DNA from: Synechococcus sp.
GTDB taxonomy: Bacteria > Cyanobacteriota > Cyanobacteriia > PCC-6307 > Cyanobiaceae
Direction of reading: 5' to 3'
Assembly (NCBI GenBank): GCA_047284725.1
Contig: JBJBEO010000001.1
Span: 1,048,203-1,112,202 of the forward strand
DNA length: 64,000 nt
The position numbers and the translations under genes were made by a program. The notes under the pieces are model-generated. The model was not told the origin of the DNA. It did no database searches and was given only the letters and a program-made list of their open reading frames with translations. Within the stretch, counting starts at the first letter, position 1. Every line of letters starts with the position of its first letter. Below are positions 29,734 to 51,647 of this stretch, one piece after another.

Positions 29734-30141
29734 TTGACCACGTATCCGATTGCTTTGACCCTGCTCTACGACGGAGGCTGTCCGCTTTGCCTGCGCGAGG
29801 TGTCGTTTCTGCGACAACGGGACCGTAGGGGGCAGATTCAATTCGTGGATGTGGATGCCGCCGACTATGCCCCCGAGGACTGGGGTGGGATCACGTATCG
29901 CCAGGCGATGGCCCGCATCCATGCCATCGGCGCGGATGGAACAGTGCTGACCGACGTGGCCGTGTTCCGTGCCGCCTACCGCCTGATCGGACTGGGATGG
30001 GTCTACGCCCCAACAACCTGGCCCATGCTCGGGATGCTGGTGGACCGTATGTACGGCCTGTGGGCGACCCACCGCCTACGCCTGACAGGACGCGCTGACC
30101 TGGATCAGCTCTGTGCAGATCGCTGTTCCAGGCAACGTTGA
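29734..30141 (+). CDS. DCC-family thiol-disulfide oxidoreductase (DUF393)
   Basis: LLYDGGCPLC (DxxCxxC), RIHAI, WATHRLRLTGR. Confidence 0.88.
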   Translation: MTTYPIALTLLYDGGCPLCLREVSFLRQRDRRGQIQFVDVDAADYAPEDWGGITYRQAMARIHAIGADGTVLTDVAVFRAAYRLIGLGWVYAPTTWPMLGMLVDRMYGLWATHRLRLTGRADLDQLCADRCSRQR

Positions 30142-30157
30142 GTCTGCGACGAATGGC

Positions 30158-30841
30158 TCAAGCGCCCTGGCTTGCCTGCAGATTCCCATCCTCCGACACC
30201 ATCAGCTTCGAGAAAAAATCGGCTTGTTCGGGTTTGATGGCACCCATGGAGACGAGCACATCGCCGATGCGAGGTCTGGTGGCCATGCGCGCTTGCTTGG
30301 CTGTGGCTTCCTTGAGACTGTCTTCGTCAATCAGACCCATGGCAATCAGACGTTCTCCCAGTCGTTTGCTGTTGAACTGGTGCAGGTCTTCCGAGGACAG
30401 CCCCAGCATGAAATCGATCACCTTGTGGGGCAGACACATCTTCAGCTTCAGGAATTCACCAAAGCGTTGAGAGCCGGAGAAGGGAATGTATTCCTGTAGA
30501 AGTTCATCCAGTTCGTCCTGGCTGAGCAGCCCTGACACCACAAGTTTCTGACCTAACTCGAGTTTTTCGAAGGCCTTGTCTGGATTGTGGGCCGTGGTAT
30601 CGAGGCTGCCCTGAATCAGTTCGGGCGCACCAAAAACTTTCTGCACCCATTCATTGGCGTTGAGAAAGCTCAGCAGTTCAGTCGGCTGGGGAGACCTCTC
30701 ACCAAAGGCATCCTGAACCAGTTCTTCAACAAAGGCCACCTGAGGGGCGGAGCCGAAATAGGTGTAGCGCAGATAGGAGCCTGACCCATGGCCTGCGATC
30801 TCAACGCGTGCAGACCCGGAACGGAGTTCAATCGTCAGCAT
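30158..30841 (-). CDS. Stand-alone protein with tandem MshEN-like c-di-GMP-binding motifs
   Basis: Residues 160-183 RLGERLIAMGLIDEDSLKEATAKQ fit RLGxxLxxxGxxxxxxLxxxLxxQ except Thr for the last Leu; then RIGDVLVSMGAI; a more degenerate pair (ELGQKLVVSGLL / RFGEFL) lies at residues 95-149. Confidence 0.8.
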   Translation of the reverse strand: MLTIELRSGSARVEIAGHGSGSYLRYTYFGSAPQVAFVEELVQDAFGERSPQPTELLSFLNANEWVQKVFGAPELIQGSLDTTAHNPDKAFEKLELGQKLVVSGLLSQDELDELLQEYIPFSGSQRFGEFLKLKMCLPHKVIDFMLGLSSEDLHQFNSKRLGERLIAMGLIDEDSLKEATAKQARMATRPRIGDVLVSMGAIKPEQADFFSKLMVSEDGNLQASQGA

Positions 30842-30864
30842 TGATCGTGGCGCCGTATCAGCAC

Positions 30865-30878
30865 TTGATAGCTATCAA
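30865..30878. promoter_or_regulatory. Perfect 14-bp palindrome in divergent promoter (candidate operator)
   Basis: TTGATAGCTATCAA is its own reverse complement; lies between the MshEN gene and the T1SS operon. Confidence 0.5.
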
Positions 30879-30983
30879 CGATAAGACGACTCAAGGCTGT
30901 CGCCAAGTGTTACATCGTTGTTGACGCTTGTCTTCATGCCTAAGTTGCGGGTGTTTAAAACCAGTCGTGGGCTTTCTTCGGCG

Positions 30984-32702
30984 ATGACTGCATCAGTGAA
31001 TCAGCACGCGCGATCGTTCTGGGGCAACAGCGTCAGCAGGGTTCAGCGCACCTATGCGAACTGCCGTGAGCTCTGGCAGGAGCTCATCAGTCATCGCTAT
31101 TTTCAGAGTATTCGATCCTTCGATTGGCACAGCATTCAGCTGGGGCAGATTCTTGTCGCGTCGGCGTTGATCAATCTGCTTGAGCTGTCAACGCCGCTCT
31201 ACATCAATATCGTCTACACGTCGATTCTTCCCAAACGTGCCAACGACAGCCTGATCCTGCTCACGGTGCTTGTGGTGCTGGCCATGGCGGCAGGGGGATG
31301 GCTGAAAGCGCTTCGGCTGTCGCTGGTCGGTCGGGAGAGTGCCCAGATCGAGCACCGCAAGCGTCTGGATGCCTATGCGCGCTTTGTGAACACCCCTGTT
31401 GGTCGCTTTCTGGCCAACAATGCATCGGTTCATCTATCCAGGCTGAACAGTATCAATCTGCTGCGCGATGAAAGTGCGGTGCAAACCCTCACGGTGGCCG
31501 TTGATCTCGCCTTCTCGCTGCTGTTCATCCTTGTGTTCATGCTTCTCGGTGGCATCCTCGTGCTGCCGGTGGTGATTGGAATCGCCATTTACTTCTTCAA
31601 GTCGCTCGCATTCTCCCGCGAATTTGAAGCTCTCAATCGCGACAAGGACAAGCTGGACATCGAGCGGCAGCATTATCAGTCGCAGGTGCTTGATTCCGTT
31701 GATCTGATCAAAACCAACGGTCTCAACAATCAGTTTCTTGTTGATGGTGAGCCGCTTCAGGAGCGTTGGTCCTGGCAGCGCATGACCAACGCCACCGCGA
31801 TTGGCAATTATCAGGCGTTAGGCAGCTACATCAGCCAGGTGACCTTTGCCTGTGTGGTCACGATGGGAGCTCTGATGATCATTGGCGACCGTCTCCTGGT
31901 CGGTGCCCTTGCGGCCTGTCTGCTCCTGGTAGGCAAGATTTTCAGCCCCTGGCAGCAGGCGATGACCTTCTGGAACAGTTTCCGGCGCCTCGGCCATTCG
32001 TTTGATGAATACGAAGCGTTGATGGAGGAGCCAGAGGAGCTTCCCAGTGGCTCCACAACCTTCATGCCGGCTGTTCAGGAGCGACTGGAACTGCTGGTCG
32101 GCCCATCCGTTGCGCTCTCGTGTCCCTACGGACAAGCGATGCTGGTGCGTGATCAGGAGTACGGCAATCACGTCAAGGACCTGTTCGTGAAGCTGATCCG
32201 CGCCGATCGAGACGACGGGATCGTTCTTGACGGCCAGAACCTTTCCAGCTACAGCACTGACTCGCTGCGTGAGGCGTTTGCCTATTGCGCCCCCTCGTCG
32301 CAGTTCTTTGAGGGGACCATCCTGCAGAACATCTGCAAATTCCAGCCCAGTCGCTATCAGAAATCCGCCTATTTCTGGTCGGTGCTGCTGGGAGTGGACT
32401 CCGAGATCCGAGCCTTGCCCGGTGGCTACGACACCACCATTGGCACGGCCAAGCCCAGTGGTCTCTCGATCGATTCGCAGTATCTGCTGCAGGTGATCGC
32501 AGCCCTGTCGGGAACGGCGTCGGTCGTGCTTCTCGATCTCAGTGATTGTTCCTTCGGCAAGCGCTTTGTCGAGGGCCTGGAACTGATCCTTCAACGCTGC
32601 GCAGGACGCAAGACGATTCTGGTGAATGGCAGTGGTCGTGTTCTGGAACGGCTGATTGCGAACCAATCGACCCTCGTGCTGTCGCCCGCATCGGGGGGAT
32701 GA
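30984..32702 (+). CDS. Type I secretion ABC subunit 1 (TMD plus degenerate NBD)
   Basis: HlyB/PrtD-like TMD (ASALINLLELSTPLY, VGALAACLLL); FFEGTILQNI and LPGGYDTTIG retained but no Walker A; start 30918-30984. Confidence 0.85.
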   Translation: MTASVNQHARSFWGNSVSRVQRTYANCRELWQELISHRYFQSIRSFDWHSIQLGQILVASALINLLELSTPLYINIVYTSILPKRANDSLILLTVLVVLAMAAGGWLKALRLSLVGRESAQIEHRKRLDAYARFVNTPVGRFLANNASVHLSRLNSINLLRDESAVQTLTVAVDLAFSLLFILVFMLLGGILVLPVVIGIAIYFFKSLAFSREFEALNRDKDKLDIERQHYQSQVLDSVDLIKTNGLNNQFLVDGEPLQERWSWQRMTNATAIGNYQALGSYISQVTFACVVTMGALMIIGDRLLVGALAACLLLVGKIFSPWQQAMTFWNSFRRLGHSFDEYEALMEEPEELPSGSTTFMPAVQERLELLVGPSVALSCPYGQAMLVRDQEYGNHVKDLFVKLIRADRDDGIVLDGQNLSSYSTDSLREAFAYCAPSSQFFEGTILQNICKFQPSRYQKSAYFWSVLLGVDSEIRALPGGYDTTIGTAKPSGLSIDSQYLLQVIAALSGTASVVLLDLSDCSFGKRFVEGLELILQRCAGRKTILVNGSGRVLERLIANQSTLVLSPASGG

Positions 32703-32752
32703 AGGCCTGATCCCTTCACGTCTTTGACGATCGCATTTCCTTTCCTGCTGCC

Positions 32753-34885
32753 ATGACTCTTTCCCGTTCTCTGACCCGCGACCTGACGCTCAGCTCGGAG
32801 GCTCCCCTCGCCTTCTGTCTGCGCTTGTTTCTGCAGAGCCTGCAATGGACCGGTCAAAGCTCTGATTTCGCCAGTGTGATGGGGCGCGATCCCCGCAGCC
32901 TCGACCTGGTGGATGCACGCAATGTTCTGCTCAGGCTTGGTTACAACACACGTTTATTGCAGATCAATGATTTCAACGACCTGAAAACCACACTGCTGCC
33001 GGCCCTCTACGTCTCGCCTGACGACCAACCGTTTGTGCTGCAGAACGGCCCGGACGAAGGCCTTCAGGTGGTCAACGCCAGTGGTGTGTTCCCCCTCGAC
33101 GCCGTCGCGCCGGGTGGATGGATTCTGGTGCTGGACGACACGGAGCTGAATCAGCGTTCATCCTTCATTGAGATTCTGTTGCTTCGCTTCTCCACGAAGA
33201 TCAGAACGCTCTATCTGATCAGCTTTGCGATCGCATTGCTGTCATTGGCGCTGCCTTTTTACATTCGCGCTGTTTACAACATCGCCATTCCAGCCCGCAG
33301 TCTGAGCTCCACCTTCTGGCTGCTGATCGGTGGTGCCTTCGTGTTCACCCTCGATCTGAATTTAAGGCAGTGGCGCGTGAAGCTGCTCTCCAATCTGGGC
33401 GGCCGATTGGATGTGTTGTTTGGCCTCAAGTTGCTGCAGAAATTTCTGGGTCTTGATTTCCGGCAACTGGAAATGATGGGCTACGGAGGCTTCAGCAGTC
33501 GCTCGCGCAATCTCGAGTCGATTCTTGCCTATGCGCAGGGGCCTCTGGCTCTGGCCTTGCTCGATTCCCCCTTTGTCTTCCTCTATCTGCTGGCGATCTG
33601 GTGGCTTGGCGGTGCGCTTGTGCTCGTGCCGATTGTGATCATGGTCTTGAGCGGCGTGTTGATTGCCTTCCTCTCGCGCTACTACAGCAGTGCGCAGGAA
33701 TTGAACATCACCACGGGCATCAGTCTGTTCCAGGCACAGCAGGAACTGGTGCGCCGCTTTCTGGAGGTGCGTCTCTCCAATCTGGAGTGGGTGTGGTTCC
33801 AGCGTCTGCGTGGACTGTCGGGTCAAAGCACCTCCACCAGCCTGACGATCAACGAACAGGTGGGCCGACTTCAGGTGATCTCCTCCACCGCCTCGCAGCT
33901 GGCCGGTGTGATCACCTTGGGCGTGGGGTGCTGGTTTGCCTTCCAGTCCCAGGACCCCAAGGTGTACGGAAACCTGATCGCCGCCATGTTCCTGGTGTGG
34001 CGTGTGTTCACGCCGTTCCAGTACTTCATGAGTGCTCTGCTGCGCTTTGAGGCGGTGCGCCGTCAGTACGACCAGTTCGATCAGTTCATGCGTCTTAAGA
34101 CCGGTGATCGTCCCACCAATCTGTCGACCTACGAGGGATTCCGTTTCTCCGGCTACATCGAAATGACGGCTGTCTCCTGCCGCCTGGCTTACGACTCCTC
34201 CTTGCAGCTGACCCGTTGTTCGATGCGGGCGACGCCCGGGGAAATTCTTGCTCTGACGGGCAAATCCGGATCCGGCAAGTCGGTGGCGCTGCGGGTGATT
34301 GATCAGTTGTATCCGGTAAGCAGCGGCACGCTGCTGTTTGACGGCAAGGATCACCGGCAGTTCTCAGCCGATGCGATTCAGCGCAACATCGCCTATGTGT
34401 TGCCGTCACCCCAATTTCTGCCCGGCACCATCTGGGACAACCTTGTTGCCATGAACCCGGATGCCCGTTTTGACGATGTGCAACGGGTTTGCGATCAACT
34501 CGAACTCACCGCCTTCATCGCCTCGTTCCCCGATGGTTATGAATCGATCATCGATCACCAGGCGCTCTATCAGATCCCGATCGGCATCCGCCGATTGTTG
34601 TCGCTCGCGCAGGCCCTGATCAAGGATGCACCGATCCTGCTGATCGATGACATCACGCAGGGATTGACTCCAGAGCAGTTTGAGGTGGTGGCGAAGGTGG
34701 TGCCCACCTTGTCGCAATCCCACTTCAGCCATCAGAAGCGCACGGTGATTCTCTCGACCGATAACGCCATGCTGCTGGATCTTGCCGACAGGATCTGCAT
34801 CCTTGATAAGGGCGTGACCGCTTTTGAAGGCACCCAGGACGAACTCAAGCAGAGTTTGCAGAAGAACAGCGCGATGCCGGGATGA
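32753..34885 (+). CDS. Type I secretion ABC subunit 2 (C39-like N-domain, TMD, NBD)
   Basis: N-terminal ~130-aa CLD-like region, TMD, Walker A GKSGSGKS, GTIWDNL, ILLIDD. Confidence 0.88.
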   Translation: MTLSRSLTRDLTLSSEAPLAFCLRLFLQSLQWTGQSSDFASVMGRDPRSLDLVDARNVLLRLGYNTRLLQINDFNDLKTTLLPALYVSPDDQPFVLQNGPDEGLQVVNASGVFPLDAVAPGGWILVLDDTELNQRSSFIEILLLRFSTKIRTLYLISFAIALLSLALPFYIRAVYNIAIPARSLSSTFWLLIGGAFVFTLDLNLRQWRVKLLSNLGGRLDVLFGLKLLQKFLGLDFRQLEMMGYGGFSSRSRNLESILAYAQGPLALALLDSPFVFLYLLAIWWLGGALVLVPIVIMVLSGVLIAFLSRYYSSAQELNITTGISLFQAQQELVRRFLEVRLSNLEWVWFQRLRGLSGQSTSTSLTINEQVGRLQVISSTASQLAGVITLGVGCWFAFQSQDPKVYGNLIAAMFLVWRVFTPFQYFMSALLRFEAVRRQYDQFDQFMRLKTGDRPTNLSTYEGFRFSGYIEMTAVSCRLAYDSSLQLTRCSMRATPGEILALTGKSGSGKSVALRVIDQLYPVSSGTLLFDGKDHRQFSADAIQRNIAYVLPSPQFLPGTIWDNLVAMNPDARFDDVQRVCDQLELTAFIASFPDGYESIIDHQALYQIPIGIRRLLSLAQALIKDAPILLIDDITQGLTPEQFEVVAKVVPTLSQSHFSHQKRTVILSTDNAMLLDLADRICILDKGVTAFEGTQDELKQSLQKNSAMPG

Positions 34886-34953
34886 CCTGACGCCCCCGAG
34901 CCGTCTGCTTGCTGTCAACCACGTTTCTTCCACTCTCTTTCCTCTTAAACGTC

Positions 34954-36339
34954 ATGACCACCACCTCCGCTTCCTCCTCCACTCCCTCCAACAACAGCTC
35001 CAGCCTGTCAACCGACAGTCTGCTCAGCTCCTTCTCTTCCCTGACCACGTCCGACACCTCGGCGTTGATCGGTCGCAATCGCCTCAATCAGGCCCTCGAA
35101 CTCGAAGAACCGCGCGACAATAAATTCCTGCGGCGAACACTGTTCGGTCTGGGCGGGGCGGCGCTGATTTTCTTCCCCTGGGCGCTGCTCACACCGATCA
35201 CGCAGGTGGTGCAAGCGTCCGGTGAGGTGGTTCCCAAGGGTTCGGTGAGTGTTCTCCAGCACCTGGAAGGCGGGATCGTTTCGAATGTGTCGGTGCAGAA
35301 CGGCCAGACTGTGAGCAAAGGCGATGTGCTTCTGACGCTCAATCCCAAACTGGTTGGCAGTGAATATGCGGCGATGCAGGCCAAGCTGGAAGCGTTGCTG
35401 CTGCAACAGCAACAGCTCCAGGCCGCCATCCGTGGTGATGGAAAGCTTCCAGAGGACACGGTTGGATCCGGTGAGCCTGCCAACGCCAAGATTGCTGAGG
35501 CTCAGCAGGCACTGCTCGATAGCCGTTTGAGCAACACTGCCGATCAGGTGGAGGCATCCAAAGCGATCGTGGCTGAAAAAGAGGCTGAGGTGGCTGGTCT
35601 GTCCGACCAGTTGCGCCTCACCATTGAGGAACGTGAGATGTGGGGGCAGCTCACCGATTCCGGTGCAGCGTCACAACTGCAGTACCTCACGGCCAGAGCC
35701 AAGGTGGCTGAAACCCGCACGGCTTTGAATGAGTCTCGCAAGGCACTCAGTCAGGCCAAGGCGAATCTGCGCGGTCTGAATTCAGGCCTTGTGTTTGAGC
35801 AGAATTCCCAGATTGCCCAGCTCGTCAATGAAGAGCAGGTGGTGGCTGAAAACATCCAGAAGATCAAGTTTCAGCTGGATCGCACCAAAGTCACCGCACC
35901 GGTGGATGGTGTGGTGAGTGACCTGCGTTTCCATGCCCCTGGCGCTGTGGTGGGTCCTGGTGCTGTGGTGGGGGCCGTGGTGCCTGCCGGCAGCAACAAG
36001 CTGGCGGAGATCCGCATTCCTTCCCAGGACATCGGCTTTGTCAAGGTGGGGCAGGACGTGAAGGTGAACCTTGCGCCCTATGACTCCTCGGTGTATGGAT
36101 CGATTCCTGGTCAGTTGGTGAGTATTTCCGGCGACACAGTGCAGGATCCGGATAACCGCCAGTTTTATTACATCGGTCAGGTGCAGCTCGAGCGCCAGAC
36201 CGTACATCCCTCAGGCAAGAAATACCCGATTCAGGTGGGTATGCCTGTGGTGGCTGATATCCAGGGCCAGCGCAGCAATGTGTTGCGTTATCTGTTCCAG
36301 CCGTTTGTGCGCACGATGGGCGGTGCTCTGAGGGAGTGA
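34954..36339 (+). CDS. HlyD-family type I secretion periplasmic adaptor
   Basis: Single TM, ASGEVVP...LQHLEGGIV, coiled coil, APVDGVV, DIGFVKVGQ, GMPVVADI. Confidence 0.95.
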   Translation: MTTTSASSSTPSNNSSSLSTDSLLSSFSSLTTSDTSALIGRNRLNQALELEEPRDNKFLRRTLFGLGGAALIFFPWALLTPITQVVQASGEVVPKGSVSVLQHLEGGIVSNVSVQNGQTVSKGDVLLTLNPKLVGSEYAAMQAKLEALLLQQQQLQAAIRGDGKLPEDTVGSGEPANAKIAEAQQALLDSRLSNTADQVEASKAIVAEKEAEVAGLSDQLRLTIEEREMWGQLTDSGAASQLQYLTARAKVAETRTALNESRKALSQAKANLRGLNSGLVFEQNSQIAQLVNEEQVVAENIQKIKFQLDRTKVTAPVDGVVSDLRFHAPGAVVGPGAVVGAVVPAGSNKLAEIRIPSQDIGFVKVGQDVKVNLAPYDSSVYGSIPGQLVSISGDTVQDPDNRQFYYIGQVQLERQTVHPSGKKYPIQVGMPVVADIQGQRSNVLRYLFQPFVRTMGGALRE

Positions 36340-36407: not shown

Positions 36408-36527
36408 CTGTTATCAGCGTATTCTCAGGGTTCTAGAGGTTCGTCCCTCAGTGACTGAATCCTGTTTTGCAAGAGAAGCGGAATAACTTGAAAACATCAC
36501 CTAGTAGTGCCTTCAGGACGACGAACG

Positions 36528-39500
36528 ATGGTTGACGAAAATCTCACCTCTGATCAAACCGGTTTTGATGCTGCTGGTACCGATGAGCAGACCAAACAGG
36601 TTGTCCAGGCTTCTGAGCAGCAAGTTCACGTGCCCGGTGGCCGTACAGCTCCAGTTGAGGGCAATACAGAGGTCCCTGATGTGCCCTATGAGGGCGAACC
36701 CGAGACGGTGAATCCGGGGAAGCCCCCAGCCAATGCAGTGGGTCCTGAGATTGAGGTGCAGACCCAACCCCAAGGCCTCGGCGGGGGCGTCACTCTTGCT
36801 TCTGAAGAGCCGGTTGAGGCGGATGAGCCTGAAACGCTACAACTTCTTGAATCTCCTGTTCCTACGGCGGATCCAATCATCACGGAAACAGTCGATGAAG
36901 GGGTCGCTCCTGCCATTGAGCCCGAGCCGGAGCCGGAGCCGGATCCAGAGCCTCAGCTCGAATTTTCGTTGGATGATCCACAGCTGGTGACGCCTGATGC
37001 AGGTACACCAGATGGTTCAGCACCGGTGGCGGTTGGTGATAACACCGATCAATCTCCTGTGAGTGTGACGACACGGGTTGCGACTCCCGTGCCTGGTCAA
37101 CTTGATTTTGACCTGAATCTCACATCTGGCAGTCCGATAACTATTCGGGACTCACTGACCGGCCAAACTGTTCAATTAAGAATTGACCGGGTCGATGGTG
37201 AGGATGTTGTTGTTGGATTTATTGGTAGTGGTGCCAATGAAACAACAGTTTTTACTGTTTCCGGCAATGAGCTTGATGGAACCATCACGCTGACTCAGTT
37301 CCGGTCGGTTCTGCATGGAGATCCACAAACCGATCCTAATACGAATGATCGTGTTGGCCTGTTTGGTCAAAATCCTGATAACGAGACTCCACCAGCGGGC
37401 TCTGAGCGCATTGTGCTTGTTGGTACATTGACCCAAGCTGACGGCCAGTCAGTTACGCAAGAAATTGATATCACGAATGCCATTGTTTTTACTGATGATG
37501 AGCCTGAGGTCAATGTTGAGGGTTCAGACATTGAGGGTTTGTTTGTCACGTATGATGGAAATACTTCCCTCGATGGTAATTTTCAAGGCTCTTCGAATGG
37601 AGATGTGCCTGCTGCTGGAACAGATTCTGATTCAGTTGTGATACCTGCTGCTTCGATTGAAGCTGCTTTCGTTTCTTCTGTTGATTACAATGCAGATGGA
37701 CCTGCTGCATCGGATATATCGCCTACTGGCGAACCTTCACCAGTTGTATCTGATTACCAGCTAGTTTTATTCGAAGACATCGTATCTGGAGTCACCCCTG
37801 TTCGAGATGATGACGGCTCTATTTGGCGCAGTCAGGGTGAGGAAGTCATATGGTTTGAAGTTTTAGGAGTCAATGGAGACCTTCTCAAGGTTGAAGGGCG
37901 AATTGATTTGGCTGGCGAGCAGATTGTTGTTTTTGATGTTGTTATTAATTCTGATCCCGCCGAGCCCGATGTTTTCGGCGATCTTGTCTTTACGCAATAC
38001 GAACAGTTGGATCATCTTGTTCCAACTTCGTCCGACTACACTTCCGATGAAAGAACACTTGGTAATAATCAGCTCTTTGTCGAGCAGCAAATAACTGCTA
38101 CAGATGCAGATTTTGATACTGATACGGCTACGGCTCGTATTGATCTTGGCAATAATTTGATTGTTGGTGATGACGGCCCAGCGATTGGCGAACTTGGCGA
38201 GGTTGATCTGAGTCAGATCACGCTGGTGACATCGGATGCAGCAGCAGCTGGTGGTAACTACACCGGCGGGTTTAGCGCCAGTGCGGATGCTGATTTTGAT
38301 GCAGCGTTTGAAGCCGTTGTGAGTGCTGCAGTGCTTGCAGGGGAGATTGATTTTGGAGCGGATATTGGAGGGACTGAGACTGCGGATGTCTCGAACTACA
38401 AGTTGGAGCTTGGTGATCTCGTTGGGGTCGGTGGTGTAACGGGGCTAACGAGTGAGGAACCCGGAACGGAAGGCGATCCCATTTATGTGTTCCTGAATGC
38501 TGCTGGAACGCAGTTGGTTGGTAGTACGAATGCTGGATATGACATTGCGGTCGATGGGATCGATGGAACGGTTGCATTCACGGTTGACCTGACGGGTGTG
38601 AATGACGTCGGCAATGTGGAGCTGACGCAGTATCAGGCTGTGACTCAGCCTGTTGCTCAAACGGATCCGGCTGCTCCGAACGATCCAATCACGGGTTATC
38701 CGAGTGATGAGGTGACGCTGGACGGTCTGGTGAAGTTGTCAGGAACAGTGACAGCGACAGACAGTGATGGAGACAAGGCGACGACAACACTGAGCACCGA
38801 CATTGGCGACAGTCTGGAACTGCGTGATGACGGCCCAGCGATTGGCGAACTTGGCGAGGTTGATCTGAGTCAGATCACGCTGGTGACATCGGATGCAGCA
38901 GCAGCTGGTGGTAACTACACCGGCGGGTTTAGCGCCAGTGCGGATGCTGATTTTGATGCAGCGTTTGAAGCCGTTGTGAGTGCTGCAGTGCTTGCAGGGG
39001 AGATTGATTTTGGAGCGGATATTGGAGGGACTGAGACTGCGGATGTCTCGAACTACAAGTTGGAGCTTGGTGATCTCGTTGGGGTCGGTGGTGTAACGGG
39101 GCTAACGAGTGAGGAACCCGGAACGGAAGGCGATCCCATTTATGTGTTCCTGAATGCTGCTGGAACGCAGTTGGTTGGTAGTACGAATGCTGGATATGAC
39201 ATTGCGGTCGATGGGATCGATGGAACGGTTGCATTCACGGTTGACCTGACGGGTGTGAATGACGTCGGCAATGTGGAGCTGACGCAGTATCAGGCTGTGA
39301 CTCAGCCTGTTGCTCAAACGGATCCGGCTGCTCCGAACGATCCAATCACGGGTTATCCGAGTGATGAGGTGACGCTGGACGGTCTGGTGAAGTTGTCAGG
39401 AACAGTGACAGCGACAGACAGTGATGGAGACAAGGCGACGACAACACTGAGCACCGACATTGGCGACAGTCTGGAACTGCGTGATGACGGCCCAGCGATT

Positions 39501-42500
39501 GGCGAACTTGGCGAGGTTGATCTGAGTCAGATCACGCTGGTGACATCGGATGCAGCAGCAGCTGGTGGTAACTACACCGGCGGGTTTAGCGCCAGTGCGG
39601 ATGCTGATTTTGATGCAGCGTTTGAAGCCGTTGTGAGTGCTGCAGTGCTTGCAGGGGAGATTGATTTTGGAGCGGATATTGGAGGGACTGAGACTGCGGA
39701 TGTCTCGAACTACAAGTTGGAGCTTGGTGATCTCGTTGGGGTCGGTGGTGTAACGGGGCTAACGAGTGAGGAACCCGGAACGGAAGGCGATCCCATTTAT
39801 GTGTTCCTGAATGCTGCTGGAACGCAGTTGGTTGGTAGTACGAATGCTGGATATGACATTGCGGTCGATGGGATCGATGGAACGGTTGCATTCACGGTTG
39901 ACCTGACGGGTGTGAATGACGTCGGCAATGTGGAGCTGACGCAGTATCAGGCTGTGACTCAGCCTGTTGCTCAAACGGATCCGGCTGCTCCGAACGATCC
40001 AATCACGGGTTATCCGAGTGATGAGGTGACGCTGGACGGTCTGGTGAAGTTGTCAGGAACAGTGACAGCGACAGACAGTGATGGAGACAAGGCGACGACA
40101 ACACTGAGCACCGACATTGGCGACAGTCTGGAACTGCGTGATGACGGCCCAGCGATTGGCGAACTTGGCGAGGTTGATCTGAGTCAGATCACGCTGGTGA
40201 CATCGGATGCAGCAGCAGCTGGTGGTAACTACACCGGCGGGTTTAGCGCCAGTGCGGATGCTGATTTTGATGCAGCGTTTGAAGCCGTTGTGAGTGCTGC
40301 AGTGCTTGCAGGGGAGATTGATTTTGGAGCGGATATTGGAGGGACTGAGACTGCGGATGTCTCGAACTACAAGTTGGAGCTTGGTGATCTCGTTGGGGTC
40401 GGTGGTGTAACGGGGCTAACGAGTGAGGAACCCGGAACGGAAGGCGATCCCATTTATGTGTTCCTGAATGCTGCTGGAACGCAGTTGGTTGGTAGTACGA
40501 ATGCTGGATATGACATTGCGGTCGATGGGATCGATGGAACGGTTGCATTCACGGTTGACCTGACGGGTGTGAATGACGTCGGCAATGTGGAGCTGACGCA
40601 GTATCAGGCTGTGACTCAGCCTGTTGCTCAAACGGATCCGGCTGCTCCGAACGATCCAATCACGGGTTATCCGAGTGATGAGGTGACGCTGGACGGTCTG
40701 GTGAAGTTGTCAGGAACAGTGACAGCGACAGACAGTGATGGAGACAAGGCGACGACAACACTGAGCACCGACATTGGCGACAGTCTGGAACTGCGTGATG
40801 ACGGCCCAGCGATTGGCGAACTTGGCGAGGTTGATCTGAGTCAGATCACGCTGGTGACATCGGATGCAGCAGCAGCTGGTGGTAACTACACCGGCGGGTT
40901 TAGCGCCAGTGCGGATGCTGATTTTGATGCAGCGTTTGAAGCCGTTGTGAGTGCTGCAGTGCTTGCAGGGGAGATTGATTTTGGAGCGGATATTGGAGGG
41001 ACTGAGACTGCGGATGTCTCGAACTACAAGTTGGAGCTTGGTGATCTCGTTGGGGTCGGTGGTGTAACGGGGCTAACGAGTGAGGAACCCGGAACGGAAG
41101 GCGATCCCATTTATGTGTTCCTGAATGCTGCTGGAACGCAGTTGGTTGGTAGTACGAATGCTGGATATGACATTGCGGTCGATGGGATCGATGGAACGGT
41201 TGCATTCACGGTTGACCTGACGGGTGTGAATGACGTCGGCAATGTGGAGCTGACGCAGTATCAGGCTGTGACTCAGCCTGTTGCTCAAACGGATCCGGCT
41301 GCTCCGAACGATCCAATCACGGGTTATCCGAGTGATGAGGTGACGCTGGACGGTCTGGTGAAGTTGTCAGGAACAGTGACAGCGACAGACAGTGATGGAG
41401 ACAAGGCGACGACAACACTGAGCACCGACATTGGCGACAGTCTGGAACTGCGTGATGACGGCCCAGCGATTGGCGAACTTGGCGAGGTTGATCTGAGTCA
41501 GATCACGCTGGTGACATCGGATGCAGCAGCAGCTGGTGGTAACTACACCGGCGGGTTTAGCGCCAGTGCGGATGCTGATTTTGATGCAGCGTTTGAAGCC
41601 GTTGTGAGTGCTGCAGTGCTTGCAGGGGAGATTGATTTTGGAGCGGATATTGGAGGGACTGAGACTGCGGATGTCTCGAACTACAAGTTGGAGCTTGGTG
41701 ATCTCGTTGGGGTCGGTGGTGTAACGGGGCTAACGAGTGAGGAACCCGGAACGGAAGGCGATCCCATTTATGTGTTCCTGAATGCTGCTGGAACGCAGTT
41801 GGTTGGTAGTACGAATGCTGGATATGACATTGCGGTCGATGGGATCGATGGAACGGTTGCATTCACGGTTGACCTGACGGGTGTGAATGACGTCGGCAAT
41901 GTGGAGCTGACGCAGTATCAGGCTGTGACTCAGCCTGTTGCTCAAACGGATCCGGCTGCTCCGAACGATCCAATCACGGGTTATCCGAGTGATGAGGTGA
42001 CGCTGGACGGTCTGGTGAAGTTGTCAGGAACAGTGACAGCGACAGACAGTGATGGAGACAAGGCGACGACAACACTGAGCACCGACATTGGCGACAGTCT
42101 GGAACTGCGTGATGACGGCCCAGCGATTGGCGAACTTGGCGAGGTTGATCTGAGTCAGATCACGCTGGTGACATCGGATGCAGCAGCAGCTGGTGGTAAC
42201 TACACCGGCGGGTTTAGCGCCAGTGCGGATGCTGATTTTGATGCAGCGTTTGAAGCCGTTGTGAGTGCTGCAGTGCTTGCAGGGGAGATTGATTTTGGAG
42301 CGGATATTGGAGGGACTGAGACTGCGGATGTCTCGAACTACAAGTTGGAGCTTGGTGATCTCGTTGGGGTCGGTGGTGTAACGGGGCTAACGAGTGAGGA
42401 ACCCGGAACGGAAGGCGATCCCATTTATGTGTTCCTGAATGCTGCTGGAACGCAGTTGGTTGGTAGTACGAATGCTGGATATGACATTGCGGTCGATGGG

Positions 42501-45500
42501 ATCGATGGAACGGTTGCATTCACGGTTGACCTGACGGGTGTGAATGACGTCGGCAATGTGGAGCTGACGCAGTATCAGGCTGTGACTCAGCCTGTTGCTC
42601 AAACGGATCCGGCTGCTCCGAACGATCCAATCACGGGTTATCCGAGTGATGAGGTGACGCTGGACGGTCTGGTGAAGTTGTCAGGAACAGTGACAGCGAC
42701 AGACAGTGATGGAGACAAGGCGACGACAACACTGAGCACCGACATTGGCGACAGTCTGGAACTGCGTGATGACGGCCCAGCGATTGGCGAACTTGGCGAG
42801 GTTGATCTGAGTCAGATCACGCTGGTGACATCGGATGCAGCAGCAGCTGGTGGTAACTACACCGGCGGGTTTAGCGCCAGTGCGGATGCTGATTTTGATG
42901 CAGCGTTTGAAGCCGTTGTGAGTGCTGCAGTGCTTGCAGGGGAGATTGATTTTGGAGCGGATATTGGAGGGACTGAGACTGCGGATGTCTCGAACTACAA
43001 GTTGGAGCTTGGTGATCTCGTTGGGGTCGGTGGTGTAACGGGGCTAACGAGTGAGGAACCCGGAACGGAAGGCGATCCCATTTATGTGTTCCTGAATGCT
43101 GCTGGAACGCAGTTGGTTGGTAGTACGAATGCTGGATATGACATTGCGGTCGATGGGATCGATGGAACGGTTGCATTCACGGTTGACCTGACGGGTGTGA
43201 ATGACGTCGGCAATGTGGAGCTGACGCAGTATCAGGCTGTGACTCAGCCTGTTGCTCAAACGGATCCGGCTGCTCCGAACGATCCAATCACGGGTTATCC
43301 GAGTGATGAGGTGACGCTGGACGGTCTGGTGAAGTTGTCAGGAACAGTGACAGCGACAGACAGTGATGGAGACAAGGCGACGACAACACTGAGCACCGAC
43401 ATTGGCGACAGTCTGGAACTGCGTGATGACGGCCCAGCGATTGGCGAACTTGGCGAGGTTGATCTGAGTCAGATCACGCTGGTGACATCGGATGCAGCAG
43501 CAGCTGGTGGTAACTACACCGGCGGGTTTAGCGCCAGTGCGGATGCTGATTTTGATGCAGCGTTTGAAGCCGTTGTGAGTGCTGCAGTGCTTGCAGGGGA
43601 GATTGATTTTGGAGCGGATATTGGAGGGACTGAGACTGCGGATGTCTCGAACTACAAGTTGGAGCTTGGTGATCTCGTTGGGGTCGGTGGTGTAACGGGG
43701 CTAACGAGTGAGGAACCCGGAACGGAAGGCGATCCCATTTATGTGTTCCTGAATGCTGCTGGAACGCAGTTGGTTGGTAGTACGAATGCTGGATATGACA
43801 TTGCGGTCGATGGGATCGATGGAACGGTTGCATTCACGGTTGACCTGACGGGTGTGAATGACGTCGGCAATGTGGAGCTGACGCAGTATCAGGCTGTGAC
43901 TCAGCCTGTTGCTCAAACGGATCCGGCTGCTCCGAACGATCCAATCACGGGTTATCCGAGTGATGAGGTGACGCTGGACGGTCTGGTGAAGTTGTCAGGA
44001 ACAGTGACAGCGACAGACAGTGATGGAGACAAGGCGACGACAACACTGAGCACCGACATTGGCGACAGTCTGGAACTGCGTGATGACGGCCCAGCGATTG
44101 GCGAACTTGGCGAGGTTGATCTGAGTCAGATCACGCTGGTGACATCGGATGCAGCAGCAGCTGGTGGTAACTACACCGGCGGGTTTAGCGCCAGTGCGGA
44201 TGCTGATTTTGATGCAGCGTTTGAAGCCGTTGTGAGTGCTGCAGTGCTTGCAGGGGAGATTGATTTTGGAGCGGATATTGGAGGGACTGAGACTGCGGAT
44301 GTCTCGAACTACAAGTTGGAGCTTGGTGATCTCGTTGGGGTCGGTGGTGTAACGGGGCTAACGAGTGAGGAACCCGGAACGGAAGGCGATCCCATTTATG
44401 TGTTCCTGAATGCTGCTGGAACGCAGTTGGTTGGTAGTACGAATGCTGGATATGACATTGCGGTCGATGGGATCGATGGAACGGTTGCATTCACGGTTGA
44501 CCTGACGGGTGTGAATGACGTCGGCAATGTGGAGCTGACGCAGTATCAGGCTGTGACTCAGCCTGTTGCTCAAACGGATCCGGCTGCTCCGAACGATCCA
44601 ATCACGGGTTATCCGAGTGATGAGGTGACGCTGGACGGTCTGGTGAAGTTGTCAGGAACAGTGACAGCGACAGACAGTGATGGAGACAAGGCGACGACAA
44701 CACTGAGCACCGACATTGGCGACAGTCTGGAACTGCGTGATGACGGCCCAGCGATTGGCGAACTTGGCGAGGTTGATCTGAGTCAGATCACGCTGGTGAC
44801 ATCGGATGCAGCAGCAGCTGGTGGTAACTACACCGGCGGGTTTAGCGCCAGTGCGGATGCTGATTTTGATGCAGCGTTTGAAGCCGTTGTGAGTGCTGCA
44901 GTGCTTGCAGGGGAGATTGATTTTGGAGCGGATATTGGAGGGACTGAGACTGCGGATGTCTCGAACTACAAGTTGGAGCTTGGTGATCTCGTTGGGGTCG
45001 GTGGTGTAACGGGGCTAACGAGTGAGGAACCCGGAACGGAAGGCGATCCCATTTATGTGTTCCTGAATGCTGCTGGAACGCAGTTGGTTGGTAGTACGAA
45101 TGCTGGATATGACATTGCGGTCGATGGGATCGATGGAACGGTTGCATTCACGGTTGACCTGACGGGTGTGAATGACGTCGGCAATGTGGAGCTGACGCAG
45201 TATCAGGCTGTGACTCAGCCTGTTGCTCAAACGGATCCGGCTGCTCCGAACGATCCAATCACGGGTTATCCGAGTGATGAGGTGACGCTGGACGGTCTGG
45301 TGAAGTTGTCAGGAACAGTGACAGCGACAGACAGTGATGGAGACAAGGCGACGACAACACTGAGCACCGACATTGGCGACAGTCTGGAACTGCGTGATGA
45401 CGGCCCAGCGATTGGCGAACTTGGCGAGGTTGATCTGAGTCAGATCACGCTGGTGACATCGGATGCAGCAGCAGCTGGTGGTAACTACACCGGCGGGTTT

Positions 45501-50915: not shown

Positions 50916-51647
50916 TTGGATTGGGTTAATCAAGAGCCTGTGCAGGATCGTCTGCTTCTTATTGCTGATACTGGCTCCGATCAAGATCTTCTTCGTAAGC
51001 ATCTTGAAGCGAGAGGATTTTTTGTAGTTCGTGTTGATTCTGTTCAGGCGGCGCTAGACCATCTGCCTCACGGCGATGTTTCGCTCGTTCTTCTCGCTCT
51101 CAGTGAAGACGCCTTAACGCTTGAAAATAAGGATCGTTTTCTCCTCCATCAGCAGTTCCAGGCCGATCGTCTGACCATTCCCCTGTTTCACCTGCTTGAT
51201 GACGACAATTTTTCACTCCGCTCGGCGTCTCTGAAGGCAGGCGCCGATGACGTGTTGTCGCGTCCCTTTGCCTGGGAAGAGCTGGACGCACGAATCATGG
51301 CGTTGTTGCGTCGCGTGCGGATGGGGCAGTCCCATGCCGACGGAGACCTTCTCAGCCTTGATAACCTTGAATTCAACATCAAGACCCGAGAAGTCTGTCG
51401 AAATGACAGCAAAGCGAAACTGACGGTGAAGGAATTCGATCTGCTTAAATTCCTGTTTCATAATCTCGATCAGGTCGTATCTCGCCAGTCAATCCTGCAT
51501 GGTGTGTGGGGTCAGAGCTGGACTGGTGATGACAACCTTCTCGATGTGTACATCCGTTATCTCCGCAAGAAAATTGAACGGGAGGGGCAGCCTCAACTGA
51601 TTCAAACCGTAAAAGGTGTGGGTTACATCCTCAAAACGCCCACCTAA
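50916..51647 (+). CDS. OmpR-family regulator with atypical (pseudo) receiver, NblR-like
   Basis: wHTH LTVKEFDLL...WG...DVYIRYLRKKIE...IQTVKGVGY; receiver lacks the phospho-Asp and conserved Lys; start TTG 50916 or GTG 50940. Confidence 0.88.
   Translation: MDWVNQEPVQDRLLLIADTGSDQDLLRKHLEARGFFVVRVDSVQAALDHLPHGDVSLVLLALSEDALTLENKDRFLLHQQFQADRLTIPLFHLLDDDNFSLRSASLKAGADDVLSRPFAWEELDARIMALLRRVRMGQSHADGDLLSLDNLEFNIKTREVCRNDSKAKLTVKEFDLLKFLFHNLDQVVSRQSILHGVWGQSWTGDDNLLDVYIRYLRKKIEREGQPQLIQTVKGVGYILKTPT

Follow-up and report, generated by a model that had tools for sequence, protein, structure and literature searches.

MshEN2, a protein of 227 amino acids encoded at positions 30158..30841 (minus strand, ORF with an ATG start) of the Synechococcus window (the whole 64,000-nucleotide stretch of DNA analyzed here), is a double MshEN_N protein associated with a type I secretion system (T1SS). 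The second of its two modules has the fold and the motif of the c-di-GMP-binding domain of MshE, the two modules reflect an internal duplication, the gene is tightly coupled to the T1SS across genomes, and its genomic context is one of c-di-GMP signaling. We rate as about even the chance that MshEN2 is a dedicated c-di-GMP-responsive accessory of the T1SS that exports a giant adhesin, and this is the explanation that we prefer. An earlier note, made from the sequence alone, had read the protein as a trans-acting c-di-GMP adaptor. The sequence observation behind that note is confirmed, and its interpretation is partly supported.

Architecture of MshEN2

MshEN2 is a soluble protein in which an alpha/beta N-terminus of about 80 residues is followed by two tandem MshEN_N-type four-helix modules; the AF2 model has a mean pLDDT of 91.1. 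The earlier note had described four RLG-like motifs in two tandem pairs with 7-residue linkers, and all of these can be seen in the translation. Pair 1 consists of E95-Y118 and R126-S149, separated by IPFSGSQ, and pair 2 of R160-Q183 and R191-M214, separated by ARMATRP. Profile comparison of the two pairs (hhalign) gave a probability of 98.2% and an E value of 3.6e-14, with 58 columns in register, and the pairs therefore represent an internal duplication. The absence of an ATPase, glycosyltransferase or DNA-binding domain, also claimed earlier, is borne out by scans of Pfam and NCBIfam, in which MshEN2 matched no such family.

The family of MshEN2 numbers 85 proteins of 139-270 amino acids, and those named by their source are all annotated as "hypothetical protein". 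Assignment to DUF4388 was rejected (17.1 bits against a cutoff of 25), the match being ascribed to a shared helical RLG-like motif. This helical motif is also present in distant multi-repeat proteins.

Module 2 is a near-canonical MshEN_N module

Module 2 (motifs 2a and 2b, residues 157-214; 30200..30373, minus strand) was identified as a near-canonical MshEN_N module of the c-di-GMP type by the NCBIfam profile NF053729 and by structural matches. NF053729 represents a cyclic di-GMP-binding domain-containing protein related to MshE, with a motif domain of 53 positions and a curated cutoff of 38 bits. MshEN2 scores 55.5 bits (E 3.5e-15) in two stretches, the better of which places residues 160-206 on profile positions 1-45, and a score so far above the cutoff indicates that the RLG-like motifs did not arise by chance. 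MshEN2 is the sole match to this profile when the entire 2.58-Mb genome is translated in six frames. Module 2 aligns to residues 7-54 of MshE, and its model superimposes on MshE with bound c-di-GMP (5HTL) with a Z of 9.2 and an rmsd of 1.9 A over 60 residues; Foldseek gave an rmsd of 1.1 A over 52 columns, at 35% identity. The c-di-GMP-bound PilF GSPII-B structure (8PDK) matched with a Z of 8.4, and the top five structural neighbors are all MshEN-type (MshE, PilF GSPII-B, PilF, PilB-N and XpsE-N). The model contains the N-terminal four-helix subdomain of MshEN with two 24-residue motifs, similar to the four helices built from two 24-residue RLG-type motifs that are described for Vibrio cholerae MshEN (5HTL; Wang et al. 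2016, PMC5013675).

The earlier assignment of the protein to MshEN was checked by profile and by structure, and stands with respect to NF053729 and the MshEN-type neighbors but not with respect to PF05157 or the C-terminal subdomain. Pfam PF05157 (gathering threshold 23.1 bits) gave no match to MshEN2, even at E values up to 1, nor did a whole-genome scan with this family give any match at the MshEN2 gene. MshEN2 ends 13 residues past motif 2b, with only two short strands there in the model, and the C-terminal alpha/beta subdomain (MshEN_C) is absent from the model. Given these results and the deviating second half of motif 2b, module 2 is not a complete MshEN domain.

Each motif was compared to the consensus sequence RLGxx(L/V/I)(L/V/I)xxG(L/V/I)(L/V/I)xxxxLxxxLxxQ (Wang 2016). 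Motif 2a fits at 10 of 11 specified positions, with T180 at L21, and because of T180 it satisfies neither of the published patterns, strict or relaxed; the strict motif I pattern is passed by 6 of 30 aligned family members. Over 52 unique family members, motif 2a has the canonical Arg in 42, Leu in 50, Gly in 49, L21 in 44 and Gln in 45. Motif 2b of MshEN2 fits at R191, I192, G193, L196, V197, G200, A201 and I202, and departs from the consensus where A207, S211 and M214 replace L17, L21 and Q24. The LxxxLxxQ portion of this motif is lacking throughout the family, with Ala at L17 in 45 of 52 members, L21 replaced by Ser or Ala in 49, and Gln24 kept in 9. The 7-residue spacer of pair 2 is found only in MshEN2's own subclade, most relatives having the canonical 5 residues.

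T180, A207, S211 and M214 correspond to L29, L54, L58 and Q61 of MshE, and these positions, together with the spacer, are those described as changed in XpsE, which fails to bind c-di-GMP (Wang 2016, PMC5013675). For Thermus thermophilus PilF, GSPII-A is reported to combine a well-matching motif I with a degenerate motif II and not to bind, even with the consensus restored (PMC12002112), whereas GSPII-B is reported to bind at 6 nM without either first Arg (PMC11731258, PMC12002112). The XpsE and PilF results mean that sequence alone cannot predict c-di-GMP binding; binding by module 2 is putative.

Module 1 and the N-terminal domain

Module 1 (motifs 1a and 1b, residues 93-148; 30398..30565, minus strand) is a degenerate MshEN_N-like four-helix module, recognized by its hhalign homology to module 2. 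The first Arg is never present in the 52 unique family members, being replaced by Thr, Pro, Ala or Glu, and the Gln24 position is occupied by Tyr (44 members) or Phe (7 members). Structural searches with module 1 returned generic helical matches alone, with a Z of about 4. Although degenerate, module 1 is among the most conserved parts of MshEN2, and L96, G97, L100, G104, L111, L115 and R126-F-G-E-F-L are nearly invariant. With Tyr for Gln and no leading Arg, it may constitute a second, non-canonical site for a nucleotide or for a partner.

This pattern of conservation bears on an alternative explanation that we consider unlikely, namely that MshEN2 is a nucleotide-independent docking protein or scaffold, whose modules bind no ligand and which tethers or assembles the T1SS or chaperones its giant substrate. 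The ligand-contact positions are altered in motif 2b and throughout module 1, and the strong conservation of module 1 would be in keeping with a surface for protein contacts. Among the structural neighbors of module 2 are N-domains with the MshEN fold from XpsE and PilB, including that of the PilB-N/PilZ complex 7LKM, and PilF GSPII-A is reported as a case in which motif conservation is no guarantee of binding (PMC12002112). A scaffold would also account equally well for the coupling of MshEN2 to the T1SS. However, retention of the Arg, Leu, Gly, L21 and Gln of motif 2a in 42 to 50 of 52 family members is hard to explain without a ligand, and the reported binding by GSPII-B indicates that some deviations are tolerated. 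Two further observations against a scaffold come from the distribution of GGDEF genes, described below.

The earlier note did not recognize an N-terminal domain of about 90 residues, and our searches of Pfam, NCBIfam and structures likewise found no family and no solved-fold match for the N-terminal 80 or so. The domain (residues 1-80; 30602..30841, minus strand) has the order beta-beta-beta-alpha-alpha-alpha-beta, and 15 of its columns are invariant among 16 orthologs. When folded alone it had a pLDDT of 84.8, and the best Foldseek match to that model had an E value of 0.22, with no usable match in the protein atlas. FANCL/RWD-like and YajQ-like folds were considered and rejected, neither resemblance being significant in VIA-align (best Z 4.3 and Z 4.1, respectively).

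The T1SS locus

ABC1, ABC2 and HlyD lie on the plus strand and MshEN2 on the minus strand, in agreement with the divergent arrangement noted earlier, and the gene starts of MshEN2 and ABC1 are separated by the intergenic region 30842..30917. The true start of ABC1 may lie further downstream, since its orthologs align only from about residue 40. A scan of positions 29900-31200 found no sigma-70-like promoter, and the 2 terminator-like hairpins that it found, against about 1 expected by chance, are uninformative. Short contigs in RNA-labelled libraries of two studies (at least 99%, or 95-99%, identical) overlap parts of MshEN2, ABC1 and ABC2; such contigs cannot show transcription, one of the studies is probably of DNA, and they were excluded from the evidence.

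ABC1 (30918..32702, plus strand) is a T1SS permease with a pseudo-NBD that lacks Walker A. Its only Pfam match is ABC_membrane, its matches to TIGR03375 and TIGR01842 are partial, and the degeneracy of its NBD is conserved in an alignment of 23 orthologs. ABC2 (32753..34885, plus strand), identified from Pfam, NCBIfam and an ortholog alignment as a T1SS permease/ATPase, retains an intact Walker A; its signature (LPxGV) is degenerate, its Walker B has Asp-Asp for Asp-Glu, and it lacks the H-loop His. Neither protein is a canonical T1SS ABC component, as both fall far below the cutoffs of TIGR03375, TIGR01842 and TIGR01846. The degenerate motifs of the two NBDs are conserved in 22-23 orthologs, which makes an external regulator of the pair plausible, and a conserved, doubly degenerate pair of this kind is, even by itself, an unusual transporter. 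The HlyD-family periplasmic adaptor (34909..36339, plus strand) scores 278.2 bits with TIGR01843, above the cutoff of 208.65.

Downstream lies the gene for a giant protein of 4776 amino acids (36507..50837, plus strand), in which a domain scan found 18 DUF5801 stretches and which is presumed to be the adhesin-like substrate of the T1SS. Its termini (the first 700 and last 799 residues) had no NCBIfam match. The substrates encoded at the loci of relatives carry LapA, DUF5801, VWA, Big_9, cadherin and RTX domains.

The next gene (50916..51647, plus strand) encodes an NblR/OmpR-like regulator with a Trans_reg_C domain (90.7 bits), a weak receiver domain (Response_reg, 24.1 bits, cutoff 30.2) and a score of 146 bits with the NblR model, under its cutoff of 300. 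The regulator belongs to the island in the window's genus; in 4 island-free genomes the best matches to it are 38-45% identical and occupy other places, distant from the DCC1-like gene in those genomes where this gene was detected. Its presence could not be judged at most freshwater loci, as the giant gene is longer than the 10-kb flanks. As a c-di-GMP-dependent transcriptional co-regulator, MshEN2 could in principle bind this regulator and act on the expression of the genes for the T1SS and the giant protein instead of on the transporter. The island membership of the regulator, its weak receiver domain and the divergent promoter region common to MshEN2 and the T1SS operon would suit such a role, and a 2026 preprint reports a cyanobacterial c-di-GMP receptor that acts through transcription factors. 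However, in genome G029 the regulator ortholog has an internal TAG and MshEN2 is intact, while in G026 the regulator is intact and MshEN2 is broken. We regard co-regulation as quite improbable.

Co-occurrence and linkage of MshEN2 with the T1SS

The association of MshEN2 with ABC1 across genomes is near-perfect. Among 395 genomes of the window's taxonomic family, each at least 90% complete, 35 carry both MshEN2 and ABC1, 358 carry neither, and one each carries only ABC1 (G399) or only MshEN2 (G026). The Fisher test p value of 8e-48 exaggerates the significance, as related genomes do not count as independent, and the pattern covers 11 genera. In G399, a 100-contig assembly, the T1SS and a PAS-GGDEF gene are present and MshEN2 is not detectable. 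G026 has lost the T1SS and the greater part of the giant gene by deletion, and its MshEN2 has a frameshift plus stop codons. MshEN2 is missing from 29 of the 34 genomes of the window's genus, and no member of the ABC1 lineage turned up in a sample of 270 genomes drawn from 39 further families of the class.

MshEN2 and ABC1 lie less than 400 bp apart in 32 of the 35 genomes with both, and linkage to the T1SS persists in three gene arrangements. In G375, MshEN2 lies downstream of HlyD on the same strand, as a result of an inversion or an IS-associated rearrangement, and in G398 and G400 it adjoins the giant gene at its 3' end, and the T1SS is on another contig. The island occupies a single conserved place in the chromosome, flanked by folP/tpi and by chlH, and part of the synteny is simply inherited, since the whole block stands at this site by folP and tpi. 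These data also address the notion that the function of MshEN2 is unrelated and that it merely hitch-hikes with the T1SS in a variable genomic island. Co-inheritance at a single site does inflate the co-occurrence figures; however, the linkage outlasts the rearrangement in G375 and the move to the opposite end of the cluster seen in G398 and G400, MshEN2 decays where the T1SS has been deleted, and the contrast of 35 genomes with both to 358 with neither extends over 11 genera. Hitch-hiking thus seems very improbable, and the tie to the T1SS proposed earlier is upheld by the co-occurrence with ABC1, the three arrangements and the decay in G026. A suggested link to other giant-protein loci finds no support: the paralogous DUF5801-giant/T1SS locus of the same genome has no MshEN2, and most genomes of the genus (29 of 34) are without the gene.

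c-di-GMP context

Within the window's genus, GGDEF genes are present in 5 of 5 MshEN2 carriers versus 4 of 29 non-carriers, and in each of the 3 genomes from genus g58 the gene adjacent to ABC1 on its upstream side, in the same orientation, encodes a PAS-GGDEF cyclase. Both the confinement of MshEN2 to genomes with GGDEF genes and the placement of a cyclase in the same operon as the T1SS argue against a nucleotide-independent scaffold. The window's genome has 22 GGDEF, 10 EAL and 2 HD-GYP matches, and its detectable c-di-GMP receptors comprise 4 PilZ matches and one MshE-type site, that of MshEN2; no ComFB was found in it. Searches of this 99.98%-complete genome for LapG (PF06035) and the LapD N-domain (PF16448) gave no match at E values up to 0.1, the PF16448 negative being the weaker because its control search reached the cutoff in 0 of 14 control genomes.

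A model for MshEN2 function and its relation to known systems

We propose that MshEN2 would be a cytoplasmic accessory subunit reserved for one T1SS lineage (ABC1/ABC2/HlyD), whose presumed cargo is a giant DUF5801 adhesin-like protein. Module 2 (R160-M214) would bind one c-di-GMP in the manner of MshE, and the resulting change would be relayed to the secretion machine by way of module 1, degenerate yet strongly conserved, and of the N-terminal domain peculiar to the family. The ABC1/ABC2 NBD heterodimer, with its conserved degenerate catalytic motifs, would be the likeliest docking partner, and binding would either license or block export. MshEN2 would then stand in for the LapD/LapG logic missing from these genomes. 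More tentatively, and with considerable doubt on our part, a stand-alone cytoplasmic MshEN_N receptor may gate a heterodimeric ABC exporter, both of whose ATP sites are conserved in degenerate form, and may in this way replace the periplasmic LapD/LapG proteolysis switch in controlling export of a giant adhesin and hence picocyanobacterial aggregation or attachment. Type I secretion would then be reached by c-di-GMP along a path not described before.

In the LapD/LapG (and DvhD/DvhG) systems, c-di-GMP decides the fate of a giant, T1SS-exported LapA-like adhesin. MshEN2 would likewise link c-di-GMP to a giant adhesin, and the substrates encoded by its relatives carry LapA, DUF5801 and VWA domains. 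LapD, however, is an inner-membrane protein with degenerate GGDEF-EAL domains, whereas MshEN2 is a soluble cytoplasmic candidate receptor, and Lap control is by periplasmic proteolysis, whereas MshEN2 would act before or during export. Among the papers that a search on c-di-GMP receptors and T1SS returned, those of relevance deal with Lap/Dvh systems (PMC6890996, PMC10990149, PMC13090378).

MshEN2 differs from MshE in lacking the C-terminal alpha/beta subdomain and the ATPase, in its spacer of 7 rather than 5 residues, and in carrying the module twice in tandem behind an unrelated N-terminal domain. The best PDB sequence match of MshEN2 is PilF (6F8L, E 1.1e-4). PilF GSPII-A, -B and -C are likewise described as tandem, diverged MshEN-type modules, of which some bind and some do not (PMC11731258, PMC12002112), and the third PilF domain has the same 7-residue spacing between its two motifs, in a gapless alignment. 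The PilF modules, however, are N-terminal parts of a pilus ATPase, each with a C-terminal subdomain, whereas those of MshEN2 are stand-alone and linked to a T1SS. The same fold serves as a partner-docking surface in GspE/XpsE N1 (2D28, Z 5.4) and in the PilB N-domain/PilZ complex (7LKM, Z 5.7); these domains sit in ATPases of type II secretion and type IV pili, whereas MshEN2 is a protein of its own, next to a type I system. YcgR and MapZ, single-domain PilZ adaptors, are small trans-acting c-di-GMP proteins that dock on a machine. The adaptor concept is alike, but the fold and motif are unrelated, and adaptors of the YcgR/MapZ type are not known to target a T1SS.

Implications for picocyanobacteria

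Cyanobacteria have many c-di-GMP enzymes and few known receptors. Literature searches for MshEN with type I secretion returned nothing beyond a review, those for Synechococcus c-di-GMP with type I secretion adhesins returned unrelated papers only, and the titles and abstract openings of papers on picocyanobacterial c-di-GMP mention nothing on MshEN2. A 2025 paper states that binding assays had until then been carried out on none of the cyanobacterial MshEN modules. If the explanation preferred here is correct, the MshEN2 family would be a concrete c-di-GMP output in coastal and freshwater picocyanobacteria, acting on how a giant surface protein, one with a probable role in governing attachment or aggregation, is exported. 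A further consequence would be a new control point for T1SS, a cytoplasmic adaptor at the transporter, where the known control by c-di-GMP is the periplasmic protease switch of the Lap/Dvh systems. The association of MshEN2 with the T1SS suggests a new way for tiny coastal and freshwater cyanobacteria to decide when to be sticky.

Motifs, fold and distribution of MshEN2

The ORF at window 30158-30841 (minus strand; 227 codons, ATG start), which we term MshEN2, encodes four RLG-type motifs of 24 residues arranged as two pairs. Motifs 1a (E95-Y118) and 1b (R126-S149) are separated by the spacer IPFSGSQ, and motifs 2a (R160-Q183) and 2b (R191-M214) by ARMATRP. The earlier note had described four RLG-like motifs in two tandem pairs, each with a 7-residue linker; the translation bears this out, and the motifs, which lie far beyond chance expectation, are also recovered by NCBIfam model NF053729 (53 positions, [quoted passage not shown]). 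This model matches two stretches of MshEN2, best over residues 160-206, with 55.5 bits (curated cutoff 38 bits) and an E value of 3.5e-15, and MshEN2 is the only place matched over the six frames of the whole 2.58-Mb genome. By sequence, MshEN2 qualifies for this motif-domain model. The proposed MshEN profile match thus held for NF053729 but not for Pfam, where no family exceeded threshold, the best match was a sub-threshold DUF4388 (17.1 bits) and PF05157 (MshEN) was absent even at E values up to 1. In several defining features MshEN2 falls short of a full MshEN/GSPII domain: it does not reach the Pfam threshold, has no C-terminal subdomain, deviates in motif II and, in the window's copy, differs in the spacer; we therefore regard MshEN2 as a protein containing MshEN_N modules rather than a member of the MshEN domain family. 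As the earlier note had maintained, Pfam and NCBIfam scans found no ATPase, glycosyltransferase or DNA-binding domain. When profiles of the two pairs were made from 30 family members, residues 90-150 and 155-215 aligned in register over 58 columns (probability 98.2%, E 3.6e-14), indicating at the sequence level that the pairs are an internal duplication.

AlphaFold2, run on an alignment of 30 sequences, gave a model (mean pLDDT 91.1, pTM 0.62) with an N-terminal domain (residues 1-80, beta-beta-beta-alpha-alpha-alpha-beta), a disordered linker and two four-helix modules, module 1 (residues 93-148) and module 2 (residues 157-214). The five best matches among about 48,000 PDB representatives are all MshEN-type modules, as had been anticipated, and all fall on residues ~150-226: V. 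cholerae MshE with c-di-GMP (5HTL; Z 9.2, rmsd 1.9 A over 60 residues), c-di-GMP-bound PilF GSPII-B (8PDK; Z 8.4), PilF (6F8L; Z 7.5), PilB-N complexed with PilZ (7LKM; Z 5.7) and XpsE-N (2D28; Z 5.4). In Foldseek, too, 5HTL is the top match, with 52 columns at rmsd 1.1 A, an identity of 35% and a probability of 1.00; its E value is only 0.27 because module 2 is so small. A search of PDB sequences aligns residues 158-207 with residues 7-54 of MshE, its ligand-binding stretch. Module 1 gave only generic helical matches among the PDB representatives (Z about 4). The N-terminal domain, folded alone (pLDDT 84.8), gave nothing above Z 4.3 or below a Foldseek E value of 0.22, and a protein atlas returned nothing for it; it remains, as first described, without a significant match in sequence or structure.

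A word-indexed search identified 85 family proteins of 139-270 aa; all those with a source name bear the label "hypothetical protein" and come from Cyanobium, Vulcanococcus, Synechococcus and Prochlorococcaceae records. Searched exhaustively, 1.84 billion cluster representatives yielded 178 matches with E values no higher than 0.001. Some ten of them span the full length, the others covering just residues ~90-213 within diverse multi-repeat proteins. MshEN2 occurs in 36 of 395 genomes and 11 of 36 genera of the taxonomic family (0/93 genomes in one genus, 1/80 in another). In the window's genus, 5 of the 34 genomes with completeness of 90% or more carry it.

The candidate c-di-GMP site

Key motif positions were tabulated across 52 unique family members. 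Motif 2a is canonical in most (Arg 42, Leu 50, Gly 49, G10 44, L17 45, L21 44, Gln24 45). Motif 2b keeps its first half alone, with conserved R-(I/L/V)-G, L6, G10 and I12; in its second half Ala stands at L17 in 45/52, Ser or Ala at L21 in 49/52 and Gln24 in only 9/52, and Phe-Phe at residues 209-210 is invariant. The leading Arg of module 1 is absent from every member and its Gln is replaced by Tyr (44) or Phe (7), and L96, G97, L100, G104, L111, L115 and R126-FGEFL are nearly invariant. The window's copy is among the more deviant members. It carries T180 at position 21 of motif 2a and therefore matches neither the strict nor the relaxed published pattern (the strict one is passed by 6 of 30 aligned members), and its pair 2 spacer has 7 residues versus 5 in most members. 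The initial grading of pair 1 as degenerate is thus upheld; that of pair 2 as near consensus applies family-wide to motif 2a, but not to the second half of 2b or to T180.

Precedents point both ways. PMC11731258 reports that PilF GSPII-B binds c-di-GMP at 6 nM without either leading Arg. Conversely, Wang 2016 (PMC5013675) includes L29, L54, L58 and Q61 among the changes that abolish XpsE binding, and sequence alignment to MshE places T180, A207, S211 and M214 of MshEN2 at these positions; PilF GSPII-A, whose motif I is good and whose motif II is degenerate, did not bind even with the consensus restored, according to PMC12002112. Binding by the MshEN2 family is thus predicted only; we consider it plausible and lean slightly towards it, and somewhat less so for the window's own copy. 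Alternatively, MshEN2 may be a docking or scaffold subunit that acts independently of the nucleotide. The deviation of motif 2b and module 1 from consensus would suit such a role, and MshEN-fold domains serving as docking surfaces exist (XpsE-N, PilB-N); we regard this as a lesser but real possibility.

Linkage to a type I secretion system

MshEN2 is divergent from an operon of ABC1 (window 30918-32702), ABC2 (32753-34885), HlyD (34909-36339), a giant gene (36507-50837) and a regulator (50916-51647), all on the plus strand; gene order and domain assignments confirm the divergence originally proposed. ABC1 has a recognised membrane domain and a nucleotide-binding domain (NBD) without Walker A. 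ABC2 has an intact Walker A, an LPxGV signature, a Walker B Asp-Asp and no H-loop His. HlyD is a T1SS adaptor (TIGR01843, 278 bits; cutoff 209), and the giant protein, of 4776 aa, contains 18 DUF5801 stretches. The regulator is NblR/OmpR-like; its nearest model is NblR, at 146 bits against an equivalog cutoff of 300, and its receiver domain scores under the Pfam threshold.

The degenerate NBD motifs of ABC1 and ABC2 (window 30918-34885) are conserved as such across 22-23 orthologues. The ABC1 signature is of the SGLSRD type and the ABC2 Asp-Asp replaces the usual Asp-Glu. Both composite ATP sites look non-canonical, an unusual state for a T1SS exporter. Within the giant-gene body (window 38000-48000) GC skew is uniformly and strongly positive (0.26-0.27) and GC content is about 0.55 versus about 0.61 in the flanks, a pattern in keeping with an extended array of almost identical DUF5801 repeats. 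Elsewhere in the genome (locus L044, about 818000-832000 of G000:C1) a paralogous DUF5801 giant gene, of more than 2564 aa and open at the locus end, is divergent from ABC1'-ABC2'-HlyD'; ABC1' is 29% identical to ABC1, and this locus has no MshEN2-like gene. In RNA-labelled libraries just short contigs cover the window's locus.

An ABC1 profile run over the same 395 genomes picked out 36 clear orthologues, none with an E value above 2.7e-249; the next match, at 9e-65, is a paralogue. A sample of 270 genomes spread over 39 other families in the class yielded no member of this lineage. Both genes occur in 35 genomes and neither in 358. One genome (G399, a 100-contig assembly) has ABC1 without MshEN2, and one (G026) a broken MshEN2 without ABC1. 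The Fisher probability of 8e-48 overstates the association, since related genomes are not independent. Going by their coordinates, the two genes lie within 400 bp of each other in 32 of the 35. We fetched 26 MshEN2 loci from named genome records; ABC1 is divergently adjacent in 20, 19 of which also show ABC2 and HlyD, and the remainder comprise 3 whose informative side is truncated by a contig end, 2 with another layout and 1 deletion case.

The linkage survives rearrangement. The complete genome G375 carries ABC1, ABC2, HlyD, a 3.8-kb gap and MshEN2 on one strand. In G398 and G400, MshEN2 lies at a contig end beside the 3' end of a giant gene, with the T1SS on another contig; in G398 its neighbour is a convergent VWA+RTX gene and the T1SS contig ends inside a giant gene. 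The layouts of these two genomes are consistent with one cluster split by repeats. The T1SS of G026 is gone, as is the giant gene save its last ~70 residues, and MshEN2 is frameshifted at about residue 60 and carries in-frame stops. Mere hitch-hiking in the island is hard to reconcile with a linkage that persists through rearrangements and a gene that decays after T1SS loss, and we think it very improbable. A c-di-GMP-dependent co-regulator of the island's NblR-like regulator also appears unlikely, if less so: G029 retains MshEN2 although a TAG lies inside its regulator orthologue, and the opposite holds in G026, where the regulator is intact and MshEN2 broken.

G375 is the one genome with the T1SS operon inverted relative to MshEN2, and a transposase-HTH ORF within its gap (L045 8271-8777, plus strand) suggests IS-mediated rearrangement. 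The G026 deletion scar (L018, contig C44, 1-3200) places chlH, the regulator, the giant-gene C-terminal remnant and the broken MshEN2 side by side.

c-di-GMP context and proposed role

In the genome that holds the window, 22 GGDEF matches exceed the cutoff, alongside 10 EAL and 2 HD-GYP matches. Its only detectable c-di-GMP receptors are 4 PilZ matches and the lone MshE-type site; searches of this genome for ComFB, LapG and the LapD N-domain found none of them. Within the genus, 9 of 34 genomes have GGDEF genes over cutoff, namely 5/5 MshEN2 carriers versus 4/29 non-carriers (p = 4.5e-4, related genomes not being independent). The most telling case is a related genus, g58: in all three of its genomes (G399, G398, G400) a PAS-GGDEF diguanylate cyclase gene lies directly upstream of ABC1 on the same strand, heading the orthologous T1SS operon (L046 7312-8349, minus strand; L048 7550-8425 and L049 3961-5037, plus strand). 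The G399 GGDEF domain scores 151 bits, and the copies in G398 and G400 are 74% and 82% identical to that of G399. This ties the T1SS lineage to c-di-GMP independently of the MshEN2 motif.

The other 25 genomes of the genus have no GGDEF match over cutoff, and judged by its domain content the c-di-GMP network of the 2.58-Mb genome is unusually rich for its group; several open-ocean Synechococcus strains are without c-di-GMP domains according to Agostoni et al. 2013. One of the two HD-GYP matches belongs to a 965-aa protein with HD-GYP (HD_5) and a sub-threshold HAMP match, likely a c-di-GMP phosphodiesterase, encoded at window 55914-58811 (plus strand) on the far side of chlH, some 4 kb from the regulator gene.

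Proteins of this general kind are already known, since Wang 2016 (PMC5013675) states that MshEN frequently occurs joined to domains that are uncharacterised. We did not find the MshEN2 architecture in print; the supplementary architecture tables of that paper, outside our search, may bear on it. Nor did we find a link between MshEN and type I secretion in the literature on MshEN, c-di-GMP receptors and picocyanobacteria, or a tested cyanobacterial MshEN module in print; a 2025 paper likewise states that none has yet been tested for binding.

We propose, at about even chances, that MshEN2 is a cytoplasmic, c-di-GMP-responsive accessory of the T1SS. c-di-GMP would be bound by module 2, and the conserved module 1 and N-terminal domain would form an output surface engaging the secretion machine, most plausibly at the ABC1/ABC2 NBD pair. 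The catalytic motifs of this pair are conserved in degenerate form, and the pair may therefore need an external activator or gate. The fold, the motif, the duplication, the genomic coupling and the c-di-GMP setting are observed; we infer ligand binding, the partner and the direction of effect. In the LapD/LapG system c-di-GMP controls the fate of a giant T1SS-exported adhesin by means of a protease. Here too c-di-GMP would decide the fate of a giant T1SS adhesin, but MshEN2 would do so through another receptor fold, in another compartment and with no protease.
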